Shown: positions 3,974-47,829 of the stretch, one piece after another
Layout of the letters: each line of letters opens with the position of its first letter
Numbering within the stretch: the first letter of the stretch is position 1
DNA from: Deferribacteres bacterium
Lineage (GTDB): Bacteria > Zhuqueibacterota > Zhuqueibacteria > Zhuqueibacterales > Geothermadaptataceae
Assembly: GCA_020633655.1 (NCBI GenBank)
Contig: JACKDF010000005.1
Location: 321,424 to 385,423, forward strand
Length of the DNA: 64,000 nucleotides
Reading direction: 5' to 3'
Program-made: the position numbers and the translations under genes
The notes under the pieces: model-generated
The model's input: only the letters and a program-made list of their open reading frames with translations
Told to the model about the DNA's origin: nothing
Database searches by the model: none

Positions 3974-4064
3974 TTTATCCTCAAAATTTATCTGTAACAA
4001 TAATTTTTTTTATCCACTCAGGCTCTTTTTCTGAGGGAATTCCTGTCTTACCGGTGAAAGCGCC

Positions 4065-5351: not shown

Positions 5352-5367
5352 AGGAAAAGTCCTTTAC

Positions 5368-5988: not shown

Positions 5989-6010
5989 TGTTTCTCAAGC
6001 TCTTGTAAAG

Positions 6011-6034
6011 AAATGAATGATTGTTCATTCATTT
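6011..6034. promoter_or_regulatory. candidate TetR operator (perfect 10-bp inverted repeat with a 4-bp spacer)
   Basis: AAATGAATGA ttgt TCATTCATTT, 22 nt upstream of the TetR start codon, in the divergent tetR / fadL-like intergenic region. Confidence 0.5.
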
Positions 6035-6452
6035 AATATAGGATAGAAATTGTAAAGATCAAGAGGGGAATATTTAAAAGTTTTTAATGTAAGTTGCGGG
6101 TTCTGTTGGTTTATGATAATTTTTAATGTTTTTTATTAGAAAGTGTTTTTATCTGAGCTTTTCTCTAATGAATATGTCGACGAAAACATTTCATGACTAT
6201 TTTTATTTGTTGACAATTAACAGTTTTTACAGTACGTTAAAGGTCGCGAATTTAAACGAATTTTTTTGCTGTTGCTGCGTGTTTCATGACAACAAAAAAT
6301 GTAGTTATTTTTATCTTTCCATTTCATTAAAAACAAAACCAAAATATTAAATAAAAATGTGAAATTGGTGGTTTGCACAATTTATGAATATGATCCCACC
6401 ATTGGCAAACTGCCCGTAGTTTATTCATCACTCACTAAAATCGGAGGGTTTT

Positions 6453-7751: not shown

Positions 7752-7783
7752 TTCAATTGAATTCAAGAGAAACGGAGATAAAT

Positions 7784-9235: not shown

Positions 9236-9253
9236 TTTTAATTAGAAATTTTT

Positions 9254-9291
9254 AAAAAAAGGTTGGTTTCGCCTGGCGAGCCAACCTTTTT
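9254..9291. terminator. bidirectional terminator hairpin between convergent genes
   Basis: A-run, then AGGTTGG...CCAACCT stem with an inner TCGCC/GGCGA stem, then a T-run. It sits between the SGNH gene (+) and the TraB/GumN gene (-). Confidence 0.7.
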
Positions 9292-10194
9292 TTATAGTTT
9301 TTTAGTTTTGATTCCCCGTGCCTTTAATAACTGAACGACACTATCGTTCCCCGTCAGATGCCCTGCCCCAACGACAATAAAATATTTTTTACCTTCTGAC
9401 AGCAAATCTTCAATTTTCGGAACCCAGGTTTTATTCCGTTCCACCAGGAGTCGATCATACAGTTGCGGAAATCCGTTAAATCCTTTCGAAAGTAATTGCT
9501 GTAACTCGTTGTTCTTGCCTTTCTCCCATGCATGGAGCATTTTCGTCATGTCTTCTTCAGCATCTTTTGAATCCTCAAGCGTTTTTTCTAAAAAAGCAAC
9601 TTGCAAATCCATGGGTAAATCGTTGAACAGATTCATTTGAAAATCAATGGATTCAAGGCCGATAAGGGGCATGTTGCGTTCCTGCGCTTTTTCGGCAAAG
9701 TGATAATCCAGTCCCAATGTTGCGTCCATTCCCATTTTTGTTGCTTCCAGGGCAGTAATCGTCATGGCGATAAACCATGGTTTACTCCGTGGGAAAAACT
9801 GGATACTTACACCCAGACCGGATAAATAATCAGAAGCTTTCTTGTATATTTCAGGCGAGACGACGTCCTTAAATAATTGCTCATTTGCAAGCTGACTGAT
9901 CTGCATCATTCGTGCTGCAGTCTGGGGCAGTTTTAAACTGTCCATATCCGCTTCCAATACAAGATCGCTACATTCATCAAAGGCTTTGTAGATTTTTTCT
10001 GGCAATGGATAATTCTCTTTTTTCAGAAAATGAACAGATCCGAGAAGATAACTATGATTGCCGTTTTTTGAAATTTTCCACAGGGTTTGTGCCTGAGCAC
10101 CGTTTGGAGTTTGAAGTAGGAAAAAGAATGCGAGGACGAGAGGGAATAGTGCGTTGTATACTGAAGATTTGAAATTGTCAAACATTGATTTCAT
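9292..10194 (-). CDS. TraB/GumN family protein (secreted or periplasmic)
   Basis: 300 aa. Signal peptide, LWKISKNGNHSYLLGSVHFL near the N-terminus, YFIVVGAGHLTG near the C-terminus. Confidence 0.8.
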   Translation of the reverse strand: MKSMFDNFKSSVYNALFPLVLAFFFLLQTPNGAQAQTLWKISKNGNHSYLLGSVHFLKKENYPLPEKIYKAFDECSDLVLEADMDSLKLPQTAARMMQISQLANEQLFKDVVSPEIYKKASDYLSGLGVSIQFFPRSKPWFIAMTITALEATKMGMDATLGLDYHFAEKAQERNMPLIGLESIDFQMNLFNDLPMDLQVAFLEKTLEDSKDAEEDMTKMLHAWEKGKNNELQQLLSKGFNGFPQLYDRLLVERNKTWVPKIEDLLSEGKKYFIVVGAGHLTGNDSVVQLLKARGIKTKKL

Positions 10195-17109: not shown

Positions 17110-19581
17110 ATGCCTGTTGAACAATTCTATTACGACAATCGCATAACGCGAAATTTTGCGATTGCAACAATGCTCTGGGGCGTTGTAGGCATGCTTGTGG
17201 GTATAATTGTCGCGCTGCAAATATACCTGCCGGAGTTAAATCTTGGCATTGCCTATACAACCTTTGGCCGCCTGCGCCCGCTTCATACGAATGCGGTTAT
17301 TTTTGCTTTTGCCGGAAATGCTATTTTTATGGGCATCTATTACAGTTTGCAAAGACTGTGTAAAGCCCGTATGTGGAGCGATTTTCTCAGTAAATTTCAT
17401 TTCTGGGGCTGGCAATTAATTATCGTTTCTGCTGCATTAACTTTGGTTTCAGGAATCACAACCTCTAAAGAATATGCAGAGCTTGAATGGCCAATCGATA
17501 TCGCAATTGCAGTGGTTTGGGTTGCCTTTGCAGTGAACATGTTTGGAACCATTATCAAACGTCGTGAGCGTCACATGTACGTTGCTATCTGGTTCTACAT
17601 TGCAACGGTTGTTACTGTTGCTGTGCTGCACATTTTCAACTCCCTTGAATTGCCCGTTTCCTTTCTGAAAAGTTATTCAGTTTATGCCGGTGTTCAGGAT
17701 GCTCTTGTTCAATGGTGGTATGGTCACAATGCTGTGGCTTTCTTTTTAACAACACCATTTTTAGGCTTAATGTATTACTATCTGCCCAAAGCCGCAAATC
17801 GCCCGGTATTTTCCTACCGTCTGTCAATTGTCCATTTCTGGGCGTTGATTTTCATTTACATTTGGGCTGGACCCCACCACTTGCTGTATACCTCATTGCC
17901 AGATTGGGCTCAAACATTAGGTATGGTATTCAGCTTAATGCTCATTTCACCCTCATGGGGTGGTATGCTTAACGGATTATTGACCTTGCGTGGTGCATGG
18001 GATCGTGTACGTGAAGATCCAATACTTAAGTTCATGGTTGTTTCCGTAACGGCATACGGGATGTCAACATTTGAAGGACCGATGCTTTCTATTAAAAGTG
18101 TGAATGCCCTGTCGCATTATACGGACTGGACAGTTGCCCACGTTCATGTTGGTACCCTTGGCTGGAACGGATTTCTCACGTTTGGCGTTGCCTATTGGTT
18201 ATTTCCACGAATCTACAAAACCAAACTGCATTCTGTTTCACTGGCAAACCTGCACTTCTGGATAGGAACGCTCGGTATCTTGTTCTGGGTTATCCCGATG
18301 TACTGGGCCGGTATTACACAAGGTTTGATGTGGAAGCAGTTCACCAGTGATGGCCTCTTGCAATATCCGAACTTCCTTGAAACCGTATTGCAAATCGTTC
18401 CAATGTATATTATTCGTTCCATCGGTGGAACCATCTATTTTGTGGGTGTTTTGATCGGTGTTTACAATTTATATAAAACAGCGAAGAGTGGAAGTCTGGT
18501 AGCTGATGAAGCTGCAGAAGCACCAGCACTGGAGCGCGAAGAAGGCGCTCATGGCCATATTTACTGGCACCGTTGGATTGAAAGTCGTCCAATGCGTTTT
18601 CTGGTGGTAACATTGATCGCAATTCTTATTGGTGGCATGGTAGAGATTATTCCTTTCCTGACCGACAAGAGTCAGATTCCGACCATCGCGACAGTTAAAC
18701 CCTATACACCACTTGAGCTTGAAGGGCGTGACCTCTACATCCGTGAAGGCTGTAACAATTGCCACTCGCAAATGGTGCGTCCATTCCGCTCTGAAACAGA
18801 ACGTTATGGTGAATATTCAAAAATTGGTGAGTTCGTTTATGATCACCCATTCCTGTGGGGATCAAAACGTACTGGCCCAGATTTGCAACGGGTCGGTAAA
18901 AAGTACCCCGATGGCTGGCATTTCAACCATATGCGCGATCCTCGTTCGATGTCTCCCGGTTCTTTGATGCCACCGTATCCATGGTTGATCAGCAATACGC
19001 TGGATGCAAGCAACATCAAAGGCAAGATTAGCGCAATGCGTACACTTGGTGTACCTTATGAGGAAGGTTACGAGGATAAAGCTGAAGCCGATATGAAGGC
19101 ACAAGCAGAAACTATCGTAGCCAATTTAAAAGCCTCAACAGTTGAGACGAGTGCAGACAAAGAAATAGTTGCCTTGATCGCTTTTTTACAGCGTCTTGGC
19201 ACGGATATCAAAGTAGGCAAAGAAGTTGAGACCACAGATATTAGCTCCTTACCAGTTCCGGATGTCACCGCCCTCACGGACGATGCAAGCATCGAAAGTG
19301 GTAAAGCGATCTGGCAGAAAAACTGCGTCGTCTGCCACGGCGATCAGGGACAAGGTCTCATTGGTCCAAACATGACCGATAAATACTGGATTCATGGAAA
19401 TGGGAGTATTGGTACAATCCTGAATGTTATTCGTGAAGGTGTGCCTGCGAAAGGGATGATTTCATGGAAATCAACCTTAACAGAGAAAGAAATGCTTCAG
19501 GTAGGCAGCTTTATCCTGGCAAAATTGCAGGGAACAAATCCGCCAAATCCAAAAGCACCTGAAGGTAATCTGGTCGAATAA
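17110..19581 (+). CDS. ccoNO: cbb3-type cytochrome c oxidase, fused CcoN-CcoO with an extra C-terminal mono-haem cytochrome c domain
   Basis: 823 aa. A multi-TM CcoN part (HVHVGTLGWNGF) comes first. The CcoO part follows, with a TM helix plus YIREGCNNCHSQMVRPF. The last ~110 aa carry a second CxxCH (NCVVCHGDQG) and are paralogous to the CcoP haem domain. Confidence 0.93.
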   Translation: MPVEQFYYDNRITRNFAIATMLWGVVGMLVGIIVALQIYLPELNLGIAYTTFGRLRPLHTNAVIFAFAGNAIFMGIYYSLQRLCKARMWSDFLSKFHFWGWQLIIVSAALTLVSGITTSKEYAELEWPIDIAIAVVWVAFAVNMFGTIIKRRERHMYVAIWFYIATVVTVAVLHIFNSLELPVSFLKSYSVYAGVQDALVQWWYGHNAVAFFLTTPFLGLMYYYLPKAANRPVFSYRLSIVHFWALIFIYIWAGPHHLLYTSLPDWAQTLGMVFSLMLISPSWGGMLNGLLTLRGAWDRVREDPILKFMVVSVTAYGMSTFEGPMLSIKSVNALSHYTDWTVAHVHVGTLGWNGFLTFGVAYWLFPRIYKTKLHSVSLANLHFWIGTLGILFWVIPMYWAGITQGLMWKQFTSDGLLQYPNFLETVLQIVPMYIIRSIGGTIYFVGVLIGVYNLYKTAKSGSLVADEAAEAPALEREEGAHGHIYWHRWIESRPMRFLVVTLIAILIGGMVEIIPFLTDKSQIPTIATVKPYTPLELEGRDLYIREGCNNCHSQMVRPFRSETERYGEYSKIGEFVYDHPFLWGSKRTGPDLQRVGKKYPDGWHFNHMRDPRSMSPGSLMPPYPWLISNTLDASNIKGKISAMRTLGVPYEEGYEDKAEADMKAQAETIVANLKASTVETSADKEIVALIAFLQRLGTDIKVGKEVETTDISSLPVPDVTALTDDASIESGKAIWQKNCVVCHGDQGQGLIGPNMTDKYWIHGNGSIGTILNVIREGVPAKGMISWKSTLTEKEMLQVGSFILAKLQGTNPPNPKAPEGNLVE

Positions 19582-35268: not shown

Positions 35269-36288
35269 TTATTGTCCTTTGCCCTTGTCTTTCTTTTTTA
35301 ATTTCTTCACTTCTTTATCAAAATCAGAAATGAATTTTTCATCCTGAATAATGCGGAATTTTTCATATTCCTTTTCAGCGGTTTCTTTGGCAACGGCGGC
35401 AGAAACTTGGCCGGGGTTGTTCAACACATCGTATTGATTAAACTGCAGAAAGGCATCCAAACGTTCTGCCCATTCCTGCATTTTTATTGGGATTTGCCGT
35501 TCTGCCTGTAATTCTGCAAAATCCAAATACATGGTAACAATACGGTTAAGATTGCGGATTTCTTTTTCATTAAGATAATTCTTGGCAACGGTAACATCAG
35601 ATTTTAAGACTTTACCTTTAGGTGCGTTTTTCCAGGTTGTCAATCCCATGTGGTCCTTAGCGGAATCTGCTCGCTGGGCAATTATTTCAGCTGCTGTGTT
35701 TCCGGTGATGGCCCAGTGCAATTTATTCTGGACTGTTTTGTAGAAAAGTTCGGTTACTGTAGACTGCGGATCGTAATCAATGCTACATTGGGCATAAATA
35801 TCCGTAATCTTCTGGTAGAAGCGGCGTTCACTGGCACGAATTTCCCGGATGCGTTCCAGCAATTCATCAAAGTAATCTTTGCCAAACAATGTGCCGCCCT
35901 GTTTTAGGCGCTCATCATCCAAAGCAAAACCTTTGGTGATAAATTCCCGCAATACGCGGGTTGCCCAGATACGGAACTGCGTTGCCCGGGAAGTATTTAC
36001 CCGATAGCCGACTGAAATAATAGCGTCCAGATTATAATATTCGAGATTGCGGGAGACCTGGCGCTCACCTTCGGTTTGAACTGTCAAGATTTCTTTGACA
36101 GTTGCTTTTTTGCCTAACTCATTTTCTTTGAAGATATTTTGCAGGTGGTAACTGATATTTTGTTTGGTTGCCCCGAACAGTTCAGCCATTTTATTGATTG
36201 TTAACCAAACTGTCTCTTCCCGTACAAGGACTTCTACCTTAACATTACCCTGCGGTGTTGTATATAAAATGATCTCAGAATTTTTCAT
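35269..36288 (-). CDS. rhuM: RhuM family (virulence-associated, Fic/DOC-neighbourhood) protein
   Basis: 339 aa. Characteristic N-terminus ...VKVEVLVREETVWLTINKMAELFGATKQNISYHLQNIFKENEL...YNLDAIISVGYRVNTSRATQFRIWATRVLREF. Confidence 0.88.
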   Translation of the reverse strand: MKNSEIILYTTPQGNVKVEVLVREETVWLTINKMAELFGATKQNISYHLQNIFKENELGKKATVKEILTVQTEGERQVSRNLEYYNLDAIISVGYRVNTSRATQFRIWATRVLREFITKGFALDDERLKQGGTLFGKDYFDELLERIREIRASERRFYQKITDIYAQCSIDYDPQSTVTELFYKTVQNKLHWAITGNTAAEIIAQRADSAKDHMGLTTWKNAPKGKVLKSDVTVAKNYLNEKEIRNLNRIVTMYLDFAELQAERQIPIKMQEWAERLDAFLQFNQYDVLNNPGQVSAAVAKETAEKEYEKFRIIQDEKFISDFDKEVKKLKKKDKGKGQ

Positions 36289-36545
36289 GTTTCACTTTCA
36301 ATTTCATAATTCTCATACGCTTCTTTTGACAACGGAAAAGCCGGATCAATCACCAGAACTTCGTCGTAGTTGAGTTGGTAGAGTTTGTAAACCAGAAAAT
36401 CAATTTTAGATTTTAGTTTTTTAAATTCTTTCTCACTGATTTCTGGTTGAAGTAGTTGATTTACAATTTTAGTAAACACATTTTGTTTGTCACTGGATGC
36501 TGTTTTAATTGGGATTTTTTTCCAATCATCAGGATAAAAATCCAA
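36285..36545 (-). pseudogene. 3'-terminal fragment of a restriction-modification (type IIG/TaqI-like or BREX-type) methyltransferase gene
   Basis: The C-terminal ~85 aa of ORF 36285..36761 (DFYPDDWKKIPIKTASSDKQNVFTKIVNQLL...KSKIDFLVYKLYQLNYDEVLVID) match the conserved tail of such enzymes. The upstream half of that ORF is just the antisense of the intron 5' end. Its stop overlaps the rhuM start (ATGA). Confidence 0.5.
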
Positions 36546-36743
36546 GTGTGTGCCCGGCATGGCACGTGTGTATTTTGAATATCGAAATATACGCAGATTA
36601 TCCAGAGGGTGCAAGTCCCTTATGGGCAAGTTGGCGAAGCCCATTAGCAAGCCGCAAGGGTGTTCCGGGTGACCGGAAATCTGAAGGAAGCGATACTGCA
36701 AGAATCTGTGCGGAGGAATACAAACTGCATATGAGGCATAGCA

Positions 36744-38018
36744 TTGTGGGTAAGTAACCACTTCTTTACAAAGCCCGTAGCCAACAAACTTTGCTATGTA
36801 GATGCAGCAGGAGTCGACGGCAGATCAGTTAACAATCTGTCTTCCTATTTGAAAACGCACTGGAGTTCGATCAAAGAAAGGGTGGAGTCTGGCCGCTATG
36901 AACCTGATGCGATATTGGGTGTGGAAATTCCCAAGAGCAATGGGAAAACCCGGCTTTTGGGTGTTCCAACAGTTGTTGACCGCTTGCTGCAGCAGGCATT
37001 ACATCAACAACTGAGCCCGATATTCGAAAAGGATTTTCAGGAACATAGCTATGGTTTTCGTCCGAACCGCAATGCACATCAGGCGATTAAACAGGCGCAC
37101 AAGAACATCAATGACGGCTATCAGGATATCGTCGATATCGATTTGAAGAGCTTCTTTGATGAAGTGAGCCATGAATTGCTGATGACATTGATATACCGAA
37201 GAGTGAAGTGCCCACTGACCTTGAAACTGATTCGGAAATTTCTTCGAGCACCTATTCAAAAGAATGGGAAACTGGAGAAACGACGCAAAGGCGTGCCACA
37301 GGGTAGCCCACTGAGTCCTTTACTGTCCAATATCATTCTGAATGAATTGGATAAGGAATTGACGAAGCGTGGCCACCGGTATGTGAGATACGCCGACGAT
37401 TTCAGTGTGTACCTCAAGAGCAAGACGGCAGCGAGACGTGTTGGAAATAGTATTTACTTGTTCCTACGCGATGAACTCCGTTTGCCGATTAATCGCGAGA
37501 AAAGTGGAATCCGTCGTCCGAGTAAGTTTTACATGCTTGGTTATGGTTTTGTGCCGGTATTTTGCAAAGGCTCAAAGGGACAGTACCAACTGGTTGCGGA
37601 CATCTTTGCCTTGAAAAGGTTAAAAGAGAAGATCAAATGGATCACCCGCAAGACGACCCCGATGACCTTTGATGAACGGATAGCAAAACTGAACCAGGTA
37701 ATGAAAGGTTGGATGCACTATTTCAAGTACGCAAATATGCATGCAAAACTGCGAGTCATTGATGTCTGGATACGCCGTCGTTTGCGTGGTTGTATCTGGC
37801 ATGATTGGAAGAAACCGAACCGCAAGATGAAGAATCTGATGCGTTTGGGAATTCCGAAAGGGATGGCTTATGCATGGAGCAGAACGCGTATGGGAAGATG
37901 GGCTGTGGCTTGTAGTCCGATATTGAGTACAACGATCACGATTGGTCGTTTGGAAAGTCGTGGCTATGTGTCGCTGGAATCATACTATCTGAAAGTTCGG
38001 AAGACTGTAGGTTCGTGA
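36744..38018 (+). CDS. group II intron reverse transcriptase/maturase (no endonuclease domain)
   Basis: 424 aa. AAGVDG, RLLGVPTVVDRLLQQA, YGFRPNRNAHQA, the YADD box (VRYADDFSVY), and maturase domain X (MKGWMHYFKYANM...RRRLRGCIW). The N-terminal ~20 aa are atypical and the start is a TTG. Confidence 0.9.
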   Translation: MWVSNHFFTKPVANKLCYVDAAGVDGRSVNNLSSYLKTHWSSIKERVESGRYEPDAILGVEIPKSNGKTRLLGVPTVVDRLLQQALHQQLSPIFEKDFQEHSYGFRPNRNAHQAIKQAHKNINDGYQDIVDIDLKSFFDEVSHELLMTLIYRRVKCPLTLKLIRKFLRAPIQKNGKLEKRRKGVPQGSPLSPLLSNIILNELDKELTKRGHRYVRYADDFSVYLKSKTAARRVGNSIYLFLRDELRLPINREKSGIRRPSKFYMLGYGFVPVFCKGSKGQYQLVADIFALKRLKEKIKWITRKTTPMTFDERIAKLNQVMKGWMHYFKYANMHAKLRVIDVWIRRRLRGCIWHDWKKPNRKMKNLMRLGIPKGMAYAWSRTRMGRWAVACSPILSTTITIGRLESRGYVSLESYYLKVRKTVGS

Positions 38019-38051
38019 ACCGCCGTGTACGTGATCCGTACGCACGGTGGT
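38018..38051 (+). ncRNA. group II intron domain V
   Basis: AACCGCCGUGUACG-UGAUC-CGUAC-GC-ACGGUGGU: 34 nt, two helices with a 2-nt bulge on the 3' strand. It starts at the RT stop codon. Confidence 0.75.
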
Positions 38052-38238
38052 GTGAGAGGCGCACTCCGGTCTAACGGGGCCGGAGCCGCCTACTCGATTA
38101 GCATGTATTTCGTTTCTTTTTATTTATTCTTTAAAAATATTTATAAATCTCCAATTTGCTTCCGCATGAATGCGTAACAAGTCTATTACCTTGAAATACA
38201 GCGATTTTTCTCGTTTTTGATGCCGCTGTTTACCAAAC

Positions 38239-40845
38239 TTAACTTTTGTAAACCATTGCATGTTCATCGGGATTGAACCCTTTTGGGAATTTGGTATCAC
38301 CATCAAAATAAGCACCCTTAAGCTTAGTTCTGTTTAAATTCGTTCTACTGAGGTTTGTTGCTCTGAGATCAGCTCCGCTGAGGTTTGCGTTTTTAAGCCT
38401 GACCCTATCAAGTTTTGCATTTCGAAGATTTGTGTTAGTAAGAAAGGCTCCACTGAGATTAGCTTCACTTAAGTTTATTCCACTGAGGTCCATCCCGCTG
38501 AGATTCACTCCGTTGAGTTTACTTTTGCTAAGATTTACTCTATTAAGGTTTGCTCCCCTAAACTTGGCCATATAAAAATCACTACCGCTGAGATTTGCTC
38601 CACTAAAGTCAATCTCACTCAAATCAGCTCCTTTAAGGATAACTCCACTCAGATTGGCTCCTTGATAATCAACTCCACTGAGATTAATTTTCATTAAGTC
38701 AGTTCGCTTTAGATTTGATTTTTTATTATTTATTCCATTAAATTTCATTCCCTTGAGATTAGCTTGCTTTAGATTTGATGCTTTATTATTTATTCCATCA
38801 GGTATAATTTTTCTTATATCAGTTTGTTTTTTTTTATCTTTTATTATACTATTATCGGTAAAAATAATTTCATTTAAATTGACTCCATTATGATCGATCT
38901 CTTTAATGTCTATTCCGTGAAAATTAGTTTGAAAAAGAATGCTGCCTTTCAGGTTGATTCCTTGGATATTAGCATCCTGTAAATCAGCATTACTGAGATT
39001 AGCCATACTGAAATTTGCTCCATTGAGGATAGCTTTACAAAGTTTAGCTCCTTTGAGATTTGAATAACTGAGTTCAGCATTTGTTAAAATAGAACTAGTA
39101 AGATTTGCCCCAGCAAGACTGGTATTATTGAGATTAGCACTTTTGAGATCAGCATTGCTAAGATTAGTTCCTTCCAGATTTGCTCCTTTAAGATCAGCAT
39201 TACTTAAGCAGATACCTTCAAGATCAGCACCACTGAGATAAGCTTCATTAAGTATACTATCGCTTAGGTTGGCATTACAAAGAATTACTTCACTAAGAGT
39301 TGCATTATTTAATTTGGCTCTACGAAGATCTGCTTTTCCTAGGTTAGCTTCACTGATGACAGCACCTTTTAGATCTGCATCCCTAAGATTTGCTTCAGTG
39401 AGTACAGCTTCCATGAGATTAACATTATTTAAATTAGCACCCATCAGGTTTGCTCTAACTAGTTTAAGTCCACTTAGATTGCAATCACTGAAATTCAATC
39501 CAGTAAGGTCTGCTTCGCTGAGATCTATTTCTTGACTATAATGTAACTTAACTAATTCAGCGACAAATTTTTTTATTTGATCTGTCCAATCAAGAAAAAC
39601 GCGATCTTTTACTGGTAATTTAACAAAGTAATTTATGAAAAGGAATTCAAGGATTGATCTATGGGAAAACTTGTAATTCCCATAACCATCTCTATTTAAG
39701 AGGGATCGAGAACTGAGTTCAAGTTCATTTAGATCAATTTTATGAGTTAAAGCGAAAGGTACTAGCTCATGTCGTGGAATTTGACCATTATTTTCCTTTT
39801 GATAGCGATATAGGTGATTTGCAAGTGCTTCAGAAAATCGTCGGAGTGCGACTTTATCACTTATGCGTTCACGGTTGATCCAATGTATAATAATTTCTTC
39901 ATAGATATCATAACTATTTTTATATTCTTTATTAGGATCCATAAAACTCGACATATATTTTAACAACATTGGACGCAAAGCAAGGCTTGGTGCAGCTGAA
40001 ATGATTTGCCAAGCTTTTCTTCGCAGTTTATAATTTAAAATAGAGTATTTTTTCTTGATAAATTTTTGTACCTGCTCATCATTAAATGGAAGCAAGTATT
40101 GAATTGTAAACATTCTGTATCCATCACTTTGATCGGCATTGATGTTTGGTATTGAAGTTTTTCGTTTTATTGCTGCTGAATTAGGAAAAAATTGTGTACG
40201 GCTACTGATTAAAACTCTATTGAAACCTTCTGTTATATCTACCAACTGATTATAACGTGTATTAATACTCTCTATTGCAAATGGGTCTTCATCAAAAGCA
40301 TCGAGAAAAAGAATTGTATTTTTTTTATTCTCTATGTTTTTGATACATTGATCTACATTTTTTGCGTTAAGTCTGAGTACAATAATTTGTTTTTTGCTAA
40401 ATTTCTTATGTCGATAATTACGCATAAGTATATTAATCAAGGCAGCCGTTTTCCCGGTACCAGAATCTCCTAGTAAATACATATGTCGATTCTTTGCCCC
40501 TTCAGACAGAAATTCATCTATTTTTGTAAATAGTTTTTCATGTTTTTTCTCTCCATAGATTTTCTTAAGGTCCTCAGTATAAGATGGGTCACTCGGTGAA
40601 CAATACGGTTCAATATAAATATCAGTATAGCTTTTAATAGTTTCTTCATCAAAAAACTCAAACGTTATTTCATTGTTAATAATTTTTAACGCTTTATTGT
40701 CTTTCCATTTAGTTTTTAACTCTAAAATAGTTTTTATAATTATCAGTATAGTACTGATTCCCCCTATTATTTTTAAAATGGTAAATTGTTTTATATCGAA
40801 TATGTTTGTTAGAAGACTAATTATATCCTGGTTGTGAAAAAACAT
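38239..40845 (-). CDS. STAND NTPase: N-terminal TM helix, NACHT-type P-loop module, long C-terminal pentapeptide-repeat array
   Basis: 868 aa. TM helix at ~aa 22-42. Walker A LLGDSGTGKTAAL, Walker B ILFLDAFDE, then VLISSRTQFF and LLPFNDEQVQKFI (NACHT order). From ~aa 445 there are about 80 A(D/N)LxG-type pentapeptide units, interrupted once by a Lys-rich linker. Confidence 0.85.
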   Translation of the reverse strand: MFFHNQDIISLLTNIFDIKQFTILKIIGGISTILIIIKTILELKTKWKDNKALKIINNEITFEFFDEETIKSYTDIYIEPYCSPSDPSYTEDLKKIYGEKKHEKLFTKIDEFLSEGAKNRHMYLLGDSGTGKTAALINILMRNYRHKKFSKKQIIVLRLNAKNVDQCIKNIENKKNTILFLDAFDEDPFAIESINTRYNQLVDITEGFNRVLISSRTQFFPNSAAIKRKTSIPNINADQSDGYRMFTIQYLLPFNDEQVQKFIKKKYSILNYKLRRKAWQIISAAPSLALRPMLLKYMSSFMDPNKEYKNSYDIYEEIIIHWINRERISDKVALRRFSEALANHLYRYQKENNGQIPRHELVPFALTHKIDLNELELSSRSLLNRDGYGNYKFSHRSILEFLFINYFVKLPVKDRVFLDWTDQIKKFVAELVKLHYSQEIDLSEADLTGLNFSDCNLSGLKLVRANLMGANLNNVNLMEAVLTEANLRDADLKGAVISEANLGKADLRRAKLNNATLSEVILCNANLSDSILNEAYLSGADLEGICLSNADLKGANLEGTNLSNADLKSANLNNTSLAGANLTSSILTNAELSYSNLKGAKLCKAILNGANFSMANLSNADLQDANIQGINLKGSILFQTNFHGIDIKEIDHNGVNLNEIIFTDNSIIKDKKKQTDIRKIIPDGINNKASNLKQANLKGMKFNGINNKKSNLKRTDLMKINLSGVDYQGANLSGVILKGADLSEIDFSGANLSGSDFYMAKFRGANLNRVNLSKSKLNGVNLSGMDLSGINLSEANLSGAFLTNTNLRNAKLDRVRLKNANLSGADLRATNLSRTNLNRTKLKGAYFDGDTKFPKGFNPDEHAMVYKS

Positions 40846-40987: not shown

Positions 40988-41269
40988 TTATTGCCATTCG
41001 GTGAAATTCAAATAACCTAGATACATAAAAAATAATGTACAAGCAGGGTATGCCAACATTTTTATCTTGTTATTTATCTTACCTAATTCAGGATGAGGTC
41101 TCATACCCAGCCAACATGATACAAAACACAGCACTAAGCCAAACAACAAACAGACACTATCAATGACCATGTTGCTTGAGTAGTAAACTGGAACTAGCAG
41201 CAAGAATCCTGCGTAAATAACAAAATCCGCTGGCTTTATACCCAACCATTCTTTAGTCGATTCTTTCAT
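40988..41269 (-). CDS. hypothetical small membrane protein (~93 aa, three hydrophobic segments)
   Basis: The ORF track gives 40988..41308 from a GTG. The ATG at 41269 (MKESTKEWLGIKPADFVIYAGFLLLVPV...) is more plausible. No family recognised. Confidence 0.45.
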   Translation of the reverse strand: MKESTKEWLGIKPADFVIYAGFLLLVPVYYSSNMVIDSVCLLFGLVLCFVSCWLGMRPHPELGKINNKIKMLAYPACTLFFMYLGYLNFTEWQ

Positions 41270-41284
41270 GTTATTCCCATAAAA

Positions 41285-41423
41285 ATATAACGTTAACGTG
41301 ATGCTCACCTGCTGGCGGGCTTAACAGCACAAAACATAAATAAATTATCAAAACTTCAAATACTGCACTGATCGTGCTGAAATTGCCGCCCTGCCCGCCA
41401 GTCAGGTGCAGCAATAGTTAGGT
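41285..41423 (-). repeat. attC-like imperfect palindrome S3
   Basis: CTCACCTGCTGGCGGGC (41304-41320) pairs with GCCCGCCAGTCAGGTG (41393-41408), with a 72-nt AT-rich loop. On the minus strand it opens ACCTAAC (41423-41417) and closes GTTAACGTTATAT (41297-41285). Confidence 0.5.
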
Positions 41424-41450: not shown

Positions 41451-44024
41451 TTAAAGAAATATAATTTCCTTGGGTACCCCATTTTCAAATTCTATCATCA
41501 ACCTCTTATCAAAATGATTATTAGTAAAAGTTACATGAAAATCTATATACTTTTTCAGTCCATCGCCAAATGCAACATTTCCAGTTTGTTGAAAGATATG
41601 ATCCATTTTAGAACTAATGTCCTGTATACTATCTAACTTTGCTTGCGTTTTATTTTGCTCAGCAATCATAATTGACTGAACTGATATTTCACATATTTTA
41701 CAAACTTGATCAGGTTGAATATCTGTATTCTCAATAGAAGTGAATCCCAGCATTTCATTTTTATTTAATAATTTCAAATTAGTTAAGACTGAGCCTGATG
41801 TATTCTTAATACTAATTATAAATTTTCCTGCTAAAACATCAAAATTTCCAATTTTTTCGATAACACATTTTAATTGATTAACTTTATTAATTTCAGGAAT
41901 ACTCTTAGTTTTAATAAAATTATTTTTTATTTCGTAACTATTGGTATTGAGCGACAATACCAAATCGTCATATTTTGAATAAAATTCATTTACTATTTCT
42001 TGTTTTGAGAGTTTGTTTTTACGTTCTTTTACAAAGCTCGATAACAAGCTTTCTTCTTTAGTAAATGTTGAATCAGATAACTTCTCAAATGAATCTAGAA
42101 TTTCAGGTGCTAATTTTTCTACAAGGATAATAGTTTCAGTCGTATCTTGTAGATAATCTGGCATATTCGCAGTAAGACAAAATAGTAAAATATTTGTCCA
42201 TGCCAATTCGGTGTCATTAGTCATTAAGTAGTTAAGACATAGTGTCCTATAGACTGATGCGAAAAGAGGTTTAAGACCAATAGCCTTTTTAGCAAATTCT
42301 ATAGATTTGTTATGTATTGATTTAATATAATAAAGCTGTGAGAGTTTAATATAGGGATACGGATTATTTGGAGCAAGTTCTAATGCCGCATTATAATAAT
42401 TAAGAGCCTGTTCGATATTATCTTTACGTTCATAAACTCTCCCAAGTTGAAAAAAAATCACAGGATCTGAAGGAGCTATTTCTTTCGCTTCCATAAGGAT
42501 TTCTATACAATTATCAAAATTTGCACTAAAAAGATATGCATCTGATAATCGATAGTAACCTAACATTTCTTCAGGTTCTTTTCGTATATACTGACGAAAA
42601 TAGTGTATTGCTCCCTCATAGTCACCTTCTTTCATATAACTTGTACCTAAAAACAAAGATACTCCAGCATTTGTAGATTTTATTATATCTTCATTTTTTT
42701 TTATTATTTGCAGAATTTCATCTGGTGTAATATTTTTATTTTCAAGGAATTGATCCCATGCGCTTGAAGGAGCTCTTAATATTTGTTCAGCCAGACTATC
42801 ATTAAAAGAGTTTATATAAACAACATTATCTCTATGATCTTGAGATATATAAAAAAGCTCAAAATTATTTGTTTCGCTGATTCTCTCAACTTCATCTTCA
42901 AAAAATCCTATTGTAAATTTAAAATTGAAGTATCCAGAATATTTTGAGTTGAAATCAACTAGTATATTTTGACCATCTTTAGATTCTATTACTATATATT
43001 TATTTCCTAAAACAGAACTTATTTTCTTTTTTGGATCAAGATTAACATGAAAAATTTCCCTATCAAACACACCTTTGGCTAATGATCCTACTACAATTCT
43101 TCTTGGAAGCTTTTCATAATTATTTAAAATTAACTCAATTTTGTCAATAGAAATCTGTTTTTCACTTTTATTAAAGAAAAAGAATTTTATTGGATCTCTG
43201 AATCTATCCTCTGAATAACCTTCTAAAGGAAGTAACCGAACTTTCTTTAATATTCCTTTTTCGATACAGTATGCATATTTATATGGGGGAGTAAAATGAT
43301 AAGCCGTTTTAATTGAAAGAGATTTGGATATAAGGGGTTGTTCAAAGACATTTATTATAATATCTTTACTTGAAAATATTTTTGATGATTTGTCAGTGAA
43401 ATGAAGAGAAATATTGCTAGCTCCAACATTTTTCCCCTTAATAATCATACTAATTTTATGCGTGCTATTTTTGTTTAGTTTTACTAGCTGTTCTAAATTT
43501 AATAATTCTATTGATACTATTTGATGATTCATTGTTATAGAATGTAGTTTTATATTTTCAATATCGCGCGTTCCTGTATTTCTCAACATTATATCCAAAT
43601 TTAATTCTTCATGAACTTGAATCTTATATTGGGATTTGTTTTCAATATGAAAAACATCTAATTTTGAATCACTACTAGTAGTGCTGTTGTTTGTCATTCT
43701 ATCAATATTTAAACTATCTAATTGAATTTCGTCTCTATCCTGAATTTTGCTCTCAGAGTTACTATTTACATTGACTATCTCCAGTTCTTTTTCTCCAAAA
43801 TATTGATAGTATATTTCTGTTGCCTTATCAATATTTGTAAGAAGTCCTATTATAGTGGTAAAAAAAGCAATGATCACACTTAATTTTGCTATTAACCATT
43901 TTCTTGGATTTCTGTGTTGCCAACATTTTGAATATGAACTAGTTGATTTAAGTTTTCTATTACATTTCTTTCCTGATTTAAGTATATGTTCACATTGCTT
44001 GTAAGATAATATAGTTTTTTCCAT
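41451..44024 (-). CDS. hypothetical 857-aa protein: Cys/His-rich N-terminus, one TM helix, beta-rich region, TPR repeats, unknown C-terminal domain
   Basis: The N-terminus reads CEHILKSGKKCNRKLKSTSSYSKCWQH, and the TM helix is WLIAKLSVIIAFFTTIIGLL. TPR-like repeats span ~aa 465-610 (GDYEGAIHYFRQYI..., ALNYYNAALELAPNNPYPY...). The gene is very AT-rich. Confidence 0.7.
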   Translation of the reverse strand: MEKTILSYKQCEHILKSGKKCNRKLKSTSSYSKCWQHRNPRKWLIAKLSVIIAFFTTIIGLLTNIDKATEIYYQYFGEKELEIVNVNSNSESKIQDRDEIQLDSLNIDRMTNNSTTSSDSKLDVFHIENKSQYKIQVHEELNLDIMLRNTGTRDIENIKLHSITMNHQIVSIELLNLEQLVKLNKNSTHKISMIIKGKNVGASNISLHFTDKSSKIFSSKDIIINVFEQPLISKSLSIKTAYHFTPPYKYAYCIEKGILKKVRLLPLEGYSEDRFRDPIKFFFFNKSEKQISIDKIELILNNYEKLPRRIVVGSLAKGVFDREIFHVNLDPKKKISSVLGNKYIVIESKDGQNILVDFNSKYSGYFNFKFTIGFFEDEVERISETNNFELFYISQDHRDNVVYINSFNDSLAEQILRAPSSAWDQFLENKNITPDEILQIIKKNEDIIKSTNAGVSLFLGTSYMKEGDYEGAIHYFRQYIRKEPEEMLGYYRLSDAYLFSANFDNCIEILMEAKEIAPSDPVIFFQLGRVYERKDNIEQALNYYNAALELAPNNPYPYIKLSQLYYIKSIHNKSIEFAKKAIGLKPLFASVYRTLCLNYLMTNDTELAWTNILLFCLTANMPDYLQDTTETIILVEKLAPEILDSFEKLSDSTFTKEESLLSSFVKERKNKLSKQEIVNEFYSKYDDLVLSLNTNSYEIKNNFIKTKSIPEINKVNQLKCVIEKIGNFDVLAGKFIISIKNTSGSVLTNLKLLNKNEMLGFTSIENTDIQPDQVCKICEISVQSIMIAEQNKTQAKLDSIQDISSKMDHIFQQTGNVAFGDGLKKYIDFHVTFTNNHFDKRLMIEFENGVPKEIIFL

Positions 44025-44264: not shown

Positions 44265-46052
44265 TTATTTTCCCCGCCGGAACGCTAACCATGCCAGGAC
44301 CAGAAAACCACTGGTTGACAAACCGATGGCAAGGATTGTAAGGAAACTGATTTCCCGGGAAATTATGAGCTTGTAGGGATCATCCCGGTCATACCAACAC
44401 GGTACAATAGCTCCCAGTTTGTTTTCTCTAAAGAATTGAAAGGATGCTGCTGCACTCGATATAACGTCGCCCTCTGGTGTTGCGTACCGTGCGGCTATTA
44501 TCGGCATTTGGTGGATCGTGGTTGTGGAACGACTTGTACGGCTTCCGCTCGTCGTTACGGATTTTAAGTAAAAACGACGGTCGAGAATCACTGCTTCCGA
44601 CTTGTCATAATTGGTATAAAGATGCACAGTTTCCATTATCAGTGTGTATGTTATAAGGGCGAAAAGCAACGAGAAAATACCCGCATTCAATCGACCGGCA
44701 ACCCTGGTGAAAGGATGTTTTCTACCCAGAAAATGCCAGGAACCGGCCCAAATCATAATTAGTAAGGGGAAGCTGAAAATCAAAAACAAACTAGCGACGG
44801 TTCCATCGACATATTCTGATTCCGATAATGGCTGACTCAGGTTTAAAAACAGGTCTTCTTCCTCGGAATAGGTTAACACGTTCCGAGCCCGCACATCAAC
44901 AGATAAATCGCCGGTGTCCCAGGCATCCCGAACAAAGATTCGCATGGTGAGAAAACCACTACTGCGTGCAGGCAGTGCTAACAACGGCCAATCAATTTTT
45001 TGGTCCAGTTGTGCCTGATAGGGATTAATAATTTTGCCATTATGCGATGTGCCAACAAACAAAGCTTCCGAATTCAAGGTGGCTTCAACTCTTACAACCC
45101 GTTTTGTGTCTGTATCGTTGGTTAAGCGGATTTTAAGTTCAGCCAGGTCACCGTGCTTCAACGGATCCGGATTTACACTAATTTTTGCAGGCGTTAATGA
45201 ACTTGTACTGTCCAGCTCTATCTGGTCTAACCAGTCCTGTCGCGCATGGCTCAGAAAATTCAGATTCTCGTTGCGATGAATGCTGCCATGGGCATAGTTA
45301 ACAAGCAGCTTGTCGACTTCCGAACTGTTACCCAGCCAATCCGCGACCGTTCGGCCGAAATCATCGACCGCGTTCACCTCGGCGCCATTTTCTGCTAATA
45401 TTTTTACCAGCTTTGGATTTGCTTCATAAACGTACATAAGCGGCGTTCTGCCGTTGTCATCCCGGGCATTTGGATCAGCACCATTGGAGAGCAGGACACT
45501 GGCTATCTCCTCGTTGTGCGTTCGCATCAATAATGTGGTTCCACCTTCCCCACGGGTATCCGGATTCAGCCCCGATTCAAGCAAAGGCTGCAGCATTTCC
45601 GGGGTTTTGGCATCATCAATTAGAGGGCGTCCAAAAGAATCCCGCGGTTCCGGATCACCTAAACCGACCCAGGCCAATTTGCGCACCAATGGCAGGTTGT
45701 CATTGTACATGGCCCGGTCAAGAAGCCGGGCCCGTTCTTCAAGAATTGGCCAGCCAAGGGGTGTTTTTAAAAGCAGGCTATCCGGCCATGCGGGAACGAG
45801 AGTTAATGCGCCTAAAATCAGGAGAGCTAAACTTCCAAGAATTGATACCGCATTTATTGGATGCGTCAGAAATGATTTTAATAACTTTTTCAGACCGAAA
45901 TAAATCAGGATTCCACCTATAAAACTCAGGAAAATAACACCCGCCAGGGGGACCAATCCGTAGAGAAGCCAGACATGCCCTACGGTTATTATCAGATAGA
46001 AAACCGTACCTGTCCAGCCTGGTTTGTCACGTTGCGCCTTGTTCTTTTTCAT
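44265..46052 (-). CDS. polytopic membrane protein with ankyrin repeats and a C-terminal DUF3592-like module
   Basis: The ORF track starts at a TTG at 46121. The ATG at 46052, preceded by AAAGGAGA, gives MKKNKAQRDKPGW... There are N-terminal TM helices and ANK repeats (GGTTLLMRTHNEEIASVLLSNGADPNARDDNGRTPLMY...LAENGAEVNAVDDFGRT). The C-terminal region is a beta-rich segment bracketed by TM helices. The DUF3592 assignment is tentative. Confidence 0.75.
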   Translation of the reverse strand: MKKNKAQRDKPGWTGTVFYLIITVGHVWLLYGLVPLAGVIFLSFIGGILIYFGLKKLLKSFLTHPINAVSILGSLALLILGALTLVPAWPDSLLLKTPLGWPILEERARLLDRAMYNDNLPLVRKLAWVGLGDPEPRDSFGRPLIDDAKTPEMLQPLLESGLNPDTRGEGGTTLLMRTHNEEIASVLLSNGADPNARDDNGRTPLMYVYEANPKLVKILAENGAEVNAVDDFGRTVADWLGNSSEVDKLLVNYAHGSIHRNENLNFLSHARQDWLDQIELDSTSSLTPAKISVNPDPLKHGDLAELKIRLTNDTDTKRVVRVEATLNSEALFVGTSHNGKIINPYQAQLDQKIDWPLLALPARSSGFLTMRIFVRDAWDTGDLSVDVRARNVLTYSEEEDLFLNLSQPLSESEYVDGTVASLFLIFSFPLLIMIWAGSWHFLGRKHPFTRVAGRLNAGIFSLLFALITYTLIMETVHLYTNYDKSEAVILDRRFYLKSVTTSGSRTSRSTTTIHQMPIIAARYATPEGDVISSAAASFQFFRENKLGAIVPCWYDRDDPYKLIISREISFLTILAIGLSTSGFLVLAWLAFRRGK

Positions 46053-46418
46053 TTTAATTATTTCGTCTCCTTTTAAGTGCTCTAAAAATCTGATATGCGG
46101 ACATACGGAAGTAACAGCCAATAGAAGTCATCCCATGATTCGATAAAAACCATCACACCGAGTTGAATGCGGTCAAAACAAAATGACTACAGGCTAGTAA
46201 TCACAGGACAAAACATTGCTATATGACCTTCTTTACCAGGTTCACTTCAGGACTGTGTACTTAATAAACCGGTTGTAGAAGTTATCTCATCCTGTCTAGG
46301 AATGCAAGGATCATTTGGGGCTTTGCCGGAAATAAGACAATATGAATACGCAAGTTACTACTACTTCTTTGGCAAATTCGAGTTTTGCCTAAAAAATAGG
46401 TAAGAGGAAAACAACCCT

Positions 46419-46893: not shown

Positions 46894-47829
46894 ATGGCGG
46901 TTTCAAAACAACGGCGACTTTTTACGATTTATGCACAAGGTGATCTGGCAGCAGCACAGAAATTGAAACAGCAATTCGCCGAAGTGCAGATCAAGTTGGG
47001 AATCGATCTCGACCGGCGGGTGGACAGCCACGCGTTTTCAGCAGACAAATGTACGGCCTTGCGAAACAGCGATGCGGCCCTTGTTCTCTGGTCGCAATAT
47101 GCAGCCGAGTCGCTTTGGGTGGAAGTTGAAATCCGTGGTGCAGAGGATTTGCACAAACCAGTGATATTGCTGCACCTCGAAGATTTTCCCCTGAATGTGA
47201 ATATGCATCCTGATCTCATCGTAAGTCCTGAGCCTGTTGAAAAGGTGCGAAAACGCATCGTTCACTTTTTAAACCGGCAAAAGGCACGACATCAAACACA
47301 TTCGTTAACACATGACCAATCGAATAATCCTTTCGCCTTGCGGAGTTCCGCTGTAAAACGGTTTAATCCGCTTTCTTTGGAGCATATGGCCCAGAAGCTT
47401 GGTTTCTTTGAAAAAACATTGAATCCCGATGGTTACGGAGTGCGGCATCAGTACGAAAGCGTGGAAGACGGGCGTCTTCTACACGACTATGCAACCGGAT
47501 TGATGTGGCAGGTTGCGGGCTCCGCCCATGAGATAAATTACGAAGTGGCCGCGGGCTATGTGGACGATTTGAACCGCGAGCGCTACAGTGGCTTTCGCGA
47601 GTGGCGCCTGCCTACGGTGGAGGAAGCCCTGTCTTTGCTCGAACCAACGCACTATGAACATGGTCTCTACCTCGATCCACTTTTTGGTGCGTTGCAAAAA
47701 TCCATCTGGACATGCGATGCATTCTCCGGGGAACATTGGACATTGAATTTCAGTGTCGCGCAATGCTTTTTACAGGGCTCTGGCACTGAGCACTTTGTAC
47801 GCGCGGTGCGAACACTCGAAACGCTTTAG
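46894..47829 (+). CDS. TIR-like domain fused to an Lcl_C/DUF1566 (lectin-like) domain
   Basis: 311 aa. The N-terminal ~105 aa fit the TIR_2 pattern (LFTIYAQGD...AAQKLKQQF...SDAALVLWSQYAAESLWVEVEI...KPVILLHLE). The C-terminal part has the DUF1566 hallmarks TGLMWQ ... FREWRLPTVEEALSLL. Confidence 0.65.
   Translation: MAVSKQRRLFTIYAQGDLAAAQKLKQQFAEVQIKLGIDLDRRVDSHAFSADKCTALRNSDAALVLWSQYAAESLWVEVEIRGAEDLHKPVILLHLEDFPLNVNMHPDLIVSPEPVEKVRKRIVHFLNRQKARHQTHSLTHDQSNNPFALRSSAVKRFNPLSLEHMAQKLGFFEKTLNPDGYGVRHQYESVEDGRLLHDYATGLMWQVAGSAHEINYEVAAGYVDDLNRERYSGFREWRLPTVEEALSLLEPTHYEHGLYLDPLFGALQKSIWTCDAFSGEHWTLNFSVAQCFLQGSGTEHFVRAVRTLETL

Follow-up and report, generated by a model that had tools for sequence, protein, structure and literature searches.

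Bacterial NACHT proteins carry a STAND nucleoside triphosphatase (NTPase), and their phage defence depends on its Walker A motif. Pentapeptide repeats and FGS domains as sensors, as well as transmembrane (TM) segments, are catalogued among them, and a D[GAS]hDE signature at Walker B sets NACHT apart from other STANDs (Kibby et al. 2022). The gene described here has a comparable organization. It occupies 38239..40845 on the minus strand of a 64,000-nucleotide stretch of contig JACKDF010000005.1 (GenBank assembly GCA_020633655.1, positions 321,424 to 385,423; hereafter the window, to which coordinates refer unless another locus is named) and encodes MCB9502347.1, a protein of 868 amino acids (aa). 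The product consists of an N-terminal TM helix, a STAND NTPase module and a pentapeptide-repeat arm in two blocks, with no other recognisable effector. We read it as a self-contained, membrane-tethered, NACHT-like STAND receptor of the NLR-related bacterial type that would act in conflict or immunity with clustering of its TM helices as output. We hold this reading to be plausible, if a little short of probable.

Like the bNACHT proteins, MCB9502347.1 has a central STAND NTPase, the D[GAS]hDE signature and C-terminal superstructure-forming repeats as its proposed sensor. An initial annotation of the window had stressed that the sensor is a DNA-mimicking repeat fold in place of TPR, WD40 or LRR. 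Pentapeptide repeats are no novelty in this position: the examined portion of Table S1 of Kibby et al. already contains 'NACHT+Pentapeptide' at least 49 times. Two such rows are cyanobacterial, clade 9 proteins with NNH3/EAD10 N-termini. In contrast to these rows, whose modules are recognised by Pfam-type NACHT profiles, MCB9502347.1 begins with a single TM helix and is missed by both PF05729 and PADLOC. No 'TM+NACHT' string was found in the examined portion of Table S1; this portion appears to be incomplete, and the absence is no proof. MCB9502347.1 also resembles bNACHT01 of clade 14 (NACHT + SNaCT) in its lack of a recognisable N-terminal effector, diversifying C-terminus, single-gene organization, similar size and Walker A near residue 115-130. 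In contrast, no TM helix is reported for bNACHT01, and a short SNaCT domain takes the place of repeats in it. Identity of the family with Kibby clade 14 was considered and rejected: the Chitinophaga rupis entry in that clade (WP_089919112.1) differs from the family member of the same species (WP_089909108.1), whose UniRef name is "NACHT domain-containing protein".

Two further systems share parts of this layout. The likeness to Avs5 (AVAST type 5) lies in nSTAND3, the model reported for the Avs5 NTPase, which is also the nearest to the MCB9502347.1 module. In PaAvs5-1, an N-terminal hydrophobic sequence is required for both membrane localisation and defence. Avs5 acts through a SIR2 NADase effector, and its repeats are alpha-helical, whereas MCB9502347.1 has no enzymatic effector, a beta-helical arm and no PADLOC match. 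In Tmn, a single polypeptide carries a TM anchor, a P-loop NTPase and a variable cytosolic solenoid arm to which a phage protein binds; Tmn assembles into a membrane decamer and acts through a membrane transport event. MCB9502347.1 likewise has a membrane anchor, a P-loop NTPase and an arm in one chain. However, the NTPase of Tmn is of another family: two TM helices are inserted in its P-loop domain, and the arm is an alpha-solenoid, while MCB9502347.1 has one N-terminal helix, a winged-helix STAND module and a beta-helix. The TM helices of YobI are inserted within the P-loop domain, and the four of KAP are arranged around it. None of these arrangements is seen in MCB9502347.1, in which the helix (residues 23-43) lies upstream of the whole module and no helix of this type lies inside it. 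The relation to Tmn is one of analogy, not of homology beyond the P-loop.

STAND-CLec proteins diversified by diversity-generating retroelements (DGRs) have been described as 'putative antigen sensors' (Kaur et al. 2020; Doré et al. 2024). DGR-diversified TM/NACHT/CLec sensors and two-target STAND loci, some with TM segments, are also on record (Doré et al. 2024). Unlike the DGR STAND-CLec proteins, MCB9502347.1 has pentapeptide repeats in place of the lectin fold, and no DGR. Earlier catalogues thus already contain pentapeptide sensors, TM segments and DGR-diversified NACHT sensors (Kibby et al. 2022; Kaur et al. 2020; Doré et al. 2024). What the literature found does not describe is this combination as a family, in which one N-terminal TM helix precedes a divergent NACHT-like module and the arm can be exchanged.

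The STAND NTPase module and N-terminal helix

The open reading frame (ORF) is intact and uninterrupted (868 aa plus stop codon) and is supported by the ORF list, an exact database match and Pfam. The identical protein was deposited from a 452 kb contig of a metagenome-assembled genome (MAG) as "pentapeptide repeat-containing protein", a name that is silent on the NTPase. Scans for promoters and terminators gave signals at or under shuffled expectation. The order of TM helix, NTPase and pentapeptide arm given by the initial annotation, with the membrane helix as the only candidate effector, is borne out by hydrophobicity, by an AlphaFold2 (AF2) model and by the Pfam pentapeptide search proposed there (PF00805, see below). 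MAG labels for the identical protein conflict, one reading 'Deferribacteres bacterium' and the other 'candidate division KSB1 bacterium' (P0001, P0122); at least one of the two is probably wrong. A partial copy of 642 aa carries the candidate division KSB1 label.

The NTPase module spans residues 61-439 (39529..40665; all features of the gene are on the minus strand). As delimited by the AF2 model, Foldseek and the Pfam nSTAND3 match, it comprises a conserved pre-NBD strand, the nucleotide-binding domain (NBD), a helical domain and a winged-helix domain. The four motifs named in the initial annotation are all present and in the expected order. Walker A (GDSGTGKT, residues 126-133, 40447..40470, with K132) is evident from sequence and homologue conservation: D127 and K132 do not vary among 118 aligned homologues, nor do the Walker A glycine and lysine in 79 modules derived from genomes. 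Walker B carries a NACHT-type extension (ILFLDAFDED, residues 178-187, 40285..40314), in which D182-A-F-D185-E186 corresponds to D[GAS]hDE. D182, D185 and E186 are invariant in both sets, A183 is at least 90% conserved, and D[AGS]xDE is found in nearly all of 84 family loci. The sensor-1-like SSRTQF (residues 214-219, 40189..40206) lies at the end of strand 210-216 in the AF2 model and includes R216, which is invariant in the 118 homologues together with Q218 and F219. LLPFNDEQV follows at residues 251-259. A motif in the pre-NBD region is also conserved (Y77, P80, C82, D86 and P87). The winged-helix motif, YKFSHRSILEFL (residues 391-402, 39640..39675), comes after the beta-hairpin; in it K392 and F393 are invariant, and each of H395, R396 and S397 is either invariant or conserved to at least 90%, giving the motif KFxHRS. 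We take this motif, with H395, to recall the FxHxSFQEFLAA of animal NLRs.

The AF2 model of residues 1-444, built on the 118 homologues, has a predicted local distance difference test score (pLDDT) of 90 and a predicted template modelling score (pTM) of 0.85. The NBD is followed by the helical domain and the winged helix, with helices at 256-378, a beta-hairpin at 383-393 and a helix at 396-407. In a Foldseek comparison with the PDB, places 1-39 were all taken by animal NLR NACHT entries (NOD2 with E=2e-10, NLRP3, NLRC4/NAIP and NLRP2/7/9), with RuvB, ORC and CED-4 thereafter. The top 50 contained no Avs, NB-ARC or MalT entry. Alignments to the NLRs cover approximately 370-480 columns, beyond the NBD alone.

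Profile searches place the module differently. The search with NACHT PF05729 that the initial annotation had proposed produced no match, whether for the N-terminal 444 aa (E<=10) or for the isolated module (E<=0.1), and a precomputed PF05729 match was present in 0 of the 120 homologues listed. Pfam NACHT was rejected as an identifier of MCB9502347.1 on this ground. Among the relatives, 47 of 79 modules have sub-threshold PF05729 matches, with a best E of 7.4e-7. The top Pfam match is nSTAND3 (PF20720), a STAND family rather than the non-STAND P-loop family that the initial annotation had named as a refutation, at 25.7 bits for the full-length protein, 27.2 for residues 1-444 and 27.3 for the isolated module, against a cut-off of 27.2; scores reach 41.6 bits among relatives (P0194). 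The tally of Pfam matches in the 79 modules (E<=0.1) is nSTAND3 66, nSTAND5 53, NACHT 47, NPHP3_N 37 and nSTAND1 25. Comparisons with single-sequence templates using hhalign were weak (the NACHT module of P0194 over 159 columns with P=1e-3, and nSTAND1 over only 19 columns). Sequence and profile searches of the PDB gave P-loop-level matches only, to RFC and Rab7. We regard these as uninformative because the GDSGxGKT loop resembles the Rab P-loop.

The module is certainly a STAND NTPase. By its Walker B signature and its predicted fold it appears NACHT-like, and by Pfam the MCB9502347.1 family appears to be a clade nearer nSTAND3. The name NACHT in the initial annotation is supported in part, by the D[GAS]hDE motif and by the precedence of animal NLRs in the structural search, but not by the PF05729 search.

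Residues 23-43, ILKIIGGISTILIIIKTILEL (40717..40779), form the single hydrophobic helix. Residues 23-41 have a Kyte-Doolittle value of 2.16 (19-residue window) despite K25 and K38, and residues 23-58 are one long helix in the AF2 model. A hydrophobic helix scoring at least 1.6 is present at the same position, on average 21 residues from the start, in 168 of the 194 family members with a complete N-terminus. Its retention in so many members marks the helix as a family feature and not as a chance hydrophobic patch. It is preceded by a tail (residues 1-22, 40780..40845) with one lysine or arginine and followed by a basic juxtamembrane continuation (residues 44-60, KTKWKDNKALK..., 40666..40716) with five in 17 residues, which is also helical in the AF2 model. 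The same asymmetry is found in the family, with a mean of 0.73 K+R in the N-flank and 4.27 in the C-flank and a higher count in the C-flank in 163 of 168 members. Under the positive-inside rule, this distribution predicts a single TM helix oriented N-out/C-in: the tail would lie outside the cytoplasm, and the NTPase and C-terminal repeats on the cytoplasmic face of the inner membrane.

The pentapeptide-repeat arm and its exchange among relatives

PF00805, which recognises tandem A(D/N)LXX pentads, matches MCB9502347.1 in 11 stretches with E=1.5e-86. A count of the register gives approximately 77 pentads (45 + 32) over approximately 410 aa, slightly fewer than the approximately 80 repeats and 420 aa first estimated. 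Block 1 (residues 440-664, 38854..39528) contains approximately 45 pentads in one register, detected by PF00805 and PF13599 as well as by the register count, and is acidic, with a net charge of -11 and a pI of 4.5. It is separated from block 2 by a basic, lysine-rich, non-repeat linker of approximately 25 residues, NSIIKDKKKQTDIRKIIPDGINNKA (residues 665-689, 38779..38853), marked by a break in register, its charge and low pLDDT. Block 2 (residues 690-849, 38299..38778) contains 32 pentads, with its best Pfam stretches at 771-847 and 786-824, and is basic, with a net charge of +13 and a pI of 10.3. The arm ends in a cap, DTKFPKGFNPDEHAMVYKS (residues 850-868, 38242..38298), containing a motif common to relatives. 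This motif, T-x-[FW]-P-x-G-F-[DN]-P (DTKFPKGFNP... in MCB9502347.1), closes or divides repeat blocks in members L008 and L025. Judged by these charges, the arm would be an electrostatically bipolar rod.

The initial annotation had proposed a DNA-mimicking sensor. DNA mimicry by the whole arm is not supported, because block 2 is basic and because matches to the NCBIfam models of DNA-mimicking and related pentapeptide proteins fall below their curated cut-offs (HetL 221.5 vs 260, Qnr 104 vs 240, MfpA 103 vs 360). These proteins are of the same repeat family, and the NCBIfam alignments extend over 100-200 residues. Qnr, MfpA and HetL are soluble dimers of approximately 200 aa, however, whereas the arm of MCB9502347.1 is approximately 410 aa long, consists of two oppositely charged blocks and is fused to an NTPase. 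A related proposal is that the arm is itself the effector, a DNA-mimicking rod that, once exposed or multimerised, would titrate DNA-binding enzymes such as gyrase, phage polymerases or phage terminases, on the model of Qnr or MfpA. Kaur et al. suggested that pentapeptide repeats in the effector position could interfere with nucleic-acid-binding proteins, and both the acidity of block 1 and the partial similarity to the Qnr and MfpA models are in keeping with this. We nevertheless consider it highly improbable: those matches are all far under the cut-offs, the strong basicity of block 2 does not fit, no explanation is offered for the conserved TM helix, and relatives have binding domains in the same position, including DGR-diversified lectin folds, an arrangement that is the hallmark of a sensor.

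The relatives were collected by an exhaustive phmmer search of 1.84 billion cluster representatives, which returned 2,079 proteins at E<=1e-3, of which 1,572 also passed E<=1e-10 (approximately 2,000 clusters at 50% identity). These counts indicate a family that is sharply bounded and does not merge with canonical NACHT at the sequence level. Members are found in KSB1, Calditrichia, Cytophagia, Acidobacteriota, Gemmatimonadota, Bacteroidota, Proteobacteria and a few Firmicutes. Their distribution is patchy, and some MAGs contain two or three paralogues (for example JABWAN01, with L010, L013 and L017). Several of the listed relatives are named for the C-terminal domain alone or as "hypothetical protein".

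What follows the NTPase varies widely. Among 75 members, the C-terminus matches FGE-sulfatase in 15, Lcl_C/DUF1566 in 14, pentapeptide repeats in 11, LRR in eight and HEAT in one, and the others have nothing that Pfam recognises. When ordered by NTPase similarity, pentapeptide-type members are interspersed among lectin-type members. The nearest relatives, P0002 and P0003, share 67-68% module identity with MCB9502347.1 and bear Lcl_C; the arm of MCB9502347.1 was therefore exchanged recently. Given the patchy family, the swapped C-terminal domains and the DGR diversification of some members, the gene is not a conserved core gene, the situation that, in non-defence contexts, the initial annotation would have counted against a defence role. 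Larger architectures also occur. P0125 and P0129 have 800-950 aa of pentapeptide repeats. In P0137 the family module and repeats are accompanied by two FGE-sulfatase matches, in P0216 by EAD1 and an AAA domain, and in P0194 by a further NTPase, which for Pfam is a canonical NACHT and which has a glycine-rich multi-TM region or inserts. P0177 has nSTAND1 followed by the family module.

The lectin-type arms link the family to DGRs. Locus L002 contains a complete DGR with two STAND targets (2632-9818 of that locus), in which a CHAT-nSTAND1-Lcl_C gene and a TM-NTPase-Lcl_C gene (P0016, a family member) flank Avd (5492-5899) and a reverse transcriptase (RT; 6158-7681), a layout that resembles the two-target STAND loci of Doré et al. 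A template repeat of 106 nt lies between Avd and RT (6032-6137), and it recurs at the 3' ends of both Lcl_C genes (variable repeats at 5186-5291 and 9715-9820). The variable repeats deviate from the template almost only at adenines, with one T>C exception. Because differences specific to template adenines are the signature of DGRs, P0016 is by its sequence a true DGR target. RT or Avd homologues are present at nine of the 84 family loci. MCB9502347.1 is not a DGR target, as its pentapeptide C-terminus is not a lectin fold and the sole nearby RT is a group II intron protein (RVT_1 + GIIM). This RT was considered as a DGR component diversifying MCB9502347.1 and was rejected; its GIIM domain and the Rfam D1-D4 and D5/6 matches identify a group II intron. 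The C-terminal slot of MCB9502347.1 nevertheless appears sensor-like, because relatives hold binding domains there, including the DGR-diversified lectin folds.

Proposed output at the membrane

In the reading that we favour, the pentapeptide arm would be a ligand-binding sensor that keeps the NTPase off until an invader molecule or another non-self cue is bound. Binding would permit nucleotide-dependent oligomerisation, as in NLRs and Avs proteins. In the most speculative step, the output, the N-terminal TM helices, of which each protomer contributes one, would be forced together as a bundle; this bundle would perturb or permeabilise the membrane, so that the infected cell is arrested or killed. 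We propose clustering of the helices because there is no other effector domain in the protein and no conserved partner gene. In the plant ZAR1-type resistosome and other NLRs, oligomerisation gathers N-terminal helices, one per protomer, into a membrane-inserted funnel. The ZAR1 helix is buried and soluble until activation, whereas that of MCB9502347.1 is hydrophobic enough for constitutive membrane insertion; the concept is shared, and no homology is claimed. There are also bacterial precedents, as STAND effectors are 'in some cases ... pore-forming membrane proteins' and Tmn works as a decamer in the membrane.

A bolder version of the same idea would make the family the barest bacterial counterpart of a resistosome. 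One TM helix per protomer would be the sole effector, oligomerisation itself would build the pore or ion leak, the sensor slot would take any rigid scaffold, and the bipolar arm might serve as a DNA-like bait for phage DNA-binding proteins at genome entry. We think this version unlikely.

The main rival concerns the helix. The receptor would be the same, but the helix would only localise the sensor to the membrane's inner face, the point of arrival for phage genomes and ejected proteins, and the output would be sequestration of the ligand in a membrane oligomer or recruitment of an unlinked host factor. The requirement of PaAvs5-1, which has an nSTAND3-type NTPase, for its N-terminal localisation sequence is in line with such a role, as is the conservation of hydrophobicity rather than sequence in the helix. 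Proteins of the bNACHT01 type (clade 14) defend without a recognised effector domain, and one relative is fused to the adaptor EAD1, implying effectors supplied in trans in that case. On the other hand, no partner gene is conserved in the 84 loci, Avs5 keeps a SIR2 effector where the MCB9502347.1 family has nothing else, and sequestration alone would be unusual as a STAND output. We consider this reading, with a helix that only localises, rather unlikely.

Several observations weigh against clustering of the helices in a defence receptor. Across the 118 homologues the helix keeps only its hydrophobic character while its sequence varies, a pattern that fits a plain anchor equally well as a pore former. 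Two lysines lie within the helix of MCB9502347.1, and approximately 13% of family members have no detectable TM helix. In the arm, AF2 predicts a confident beta-helix only for residues 440 to approximately 515, and confidence is low beyond that point. In several relatives the repeats stand between the NTPase and a further domain (FGE, EAD1 or a second NACHT) and may be a spacer there rather than a sensor. The PADLOC defence models gave only a P-loop-level match, to HerA (E=0.005); PADLOC 2.0 presumably carries bNACHT, Avs and Tmn models. The family has no match in any phage genome and, among plasmids, only one, in a megaplasmid, and some family loci lie among housekeeping genes (L001). We found no published experiment on any family member, and the literature found contains no experimental test of any pentapeptide-sensor STAND protein.

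If clustering of the TM helices is the output, MCB9502347.1 would be the simplest NLR-type death switch known, made of a sensor, an NTPase switch and one TM helix, without any enzymatic effector. It would also be a tractable model of how oligomerisation alone is converted into membrane damage. Recognising the family, with its approximately 2,000 clusters in many phyla, would enlarge the census of bacterial NLR-like proteins by a sizeable branch associated with the membrane. One chassis here unites three sensor solutions: DGR-hypermutated lectin folds, LRR/HEAT and pentapeptide beta-helices.

Genomic neighbourhood

The gene lies in an island of approximately 13 kb (approximately 35-48 kb of the window) that is bounded by housekeeping genes; no tRNA gene or other island boundary was found there. 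As noted in the initial annotation, the gene is strongly AT-rich (32.7% GC, compared with 42.6% for the window). Downstream of it, a RhuM-family protein is encoded on the minus strand at 35269-36288 (Pfam E=2.6e-117) and matches the PADLOC candidate PDC-S05 with E~1e-155. An adjacent 158-aa ORF (36285-36761, minus strand) matches positions 1165-1244 of a 1247-position PADLOC model through its residues 65-139 (chiefly 36345-36569; E=9e-5). From this match it appears to be the C-terminal remnant of a type IIG restriction-methyltransferase, beside or disrupted by a group II intron. The intron (~36663-38098, plus strand) is convergent with the MCB9502347.1 gene and ends approximately 140 nt from its stop codon. 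Its D1-D4 (36663-36828) score 94.5 bits and its D5/6 (38018-38098) 38.9 bits, just under the gathering score, and its RT/maturase ORF is at 36744-38018 on the plus strand.

Three genes follow on the minus strand upstream of MCB9502347.1. The first is a 106-aa ORF with three hydrophobic (TM) segments (40988-41308, 35.8% GC) and the second an 857-aa TPR protein (41451-44024, 27.7% GC) with a Cys-rich/Zn-ribbon-like N-terminus, a TM segment and TPRs at residues of approximately 438-610. The third, a 618-aa ankyrin-repeat protein (44265-46121, 46.9% GC), matches PADLOC PDC-M72A (E=4e-10) through its ankyrin repeats only. A 311-aa TIR-Lcl_C (DUF1566) protein is encoded beyond these on the plus strand (46894-47829).

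The 106-aa and 857-aa neighbours might form a three-gene system with MCB9502347.1, one of them supplying the effector. The three genes are contiguous and on the same strand, their common low GC content (27.7-35.8% compared with 42.6%) suggests joint acquisition, and membrane segments are predicted in both neighbours. Against this, homologues of the two neighbours are missing from all 84 family loci (0/84, as is also the case for the ankyrin-repeat and RhuM proteins), neither has a PADLOC match, other pentapeptide-type members stand beside unrelated genes, and the intergenic gaps are approximately 140 nt. A three-gene system is therefore distinctly improbable. On the same count we rejected the idea that the gene belongs to a conserved operon with the 857-aa and 106-aa neighbours, and because these neighbours lack homologues at all 84 loci, no partner gene is conserved.

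The description of the surroundings as a defence-like island holds in part. The RhuM/PDC-S05 protein, the type IIG restriction-modification remnant, the TIR-Lcl_C gene and the group II intron are consistent with it, but the island contains no complete known defence system, and MCB9502347.1 is itself unseen by PADLOC. Among the other pentapeptide-type members, one locus looks defence-related or mobile (MmeI restriction-modification, Mrr and an integrase), and another is surrounded by housekeeping genes.

The same sensor, NTPase and membrane logic could instead serve a role outside defence, such as kin/non-kin discrimination or developmental control of cell death in bacteria with complex lifestyles. 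Kin recognition was proposed by Doré et al. for DGR-diversified STAND sensors. Paralogue expansions in KSB1, Caldithrix and Cytophagia-type MAGs, the lack of a PADLOC match and the housekeeping surroundings at some loci would also suit such a role. However, the sensor is predicted to be cytoplasmic, so neighbouring cells would not be directly visible to it; the RhuM/PDC-S05 protein, the restriction-modification remnant and the TIR-Lcl_C gene are close by; and all bacterial NACHT proteins tested have been anti-phage. A role of this kind is quite unlikely in our estimation, and a membrane-tethered immune receptor remains the reading we prefer.

Two minor features of the window may be added. No orphan template repeat for the TIR-Lcl_C gene was found within the window, nor does the window contain a DGR RT. 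Full-length relatives of its product adjoin DGR Avd/RT cassettes beside family members in two loci (L005, 12632-13495; L029, 12356-13165), and between its lectin domain and the C-terminal sensors of the NTPase family the identity is 33-43%. Outside the island, two adjacent ORFs on the plus strand (14471-16942 and 17110-19581) are both exactly 823 aa in length and may represent a tandem duplication.

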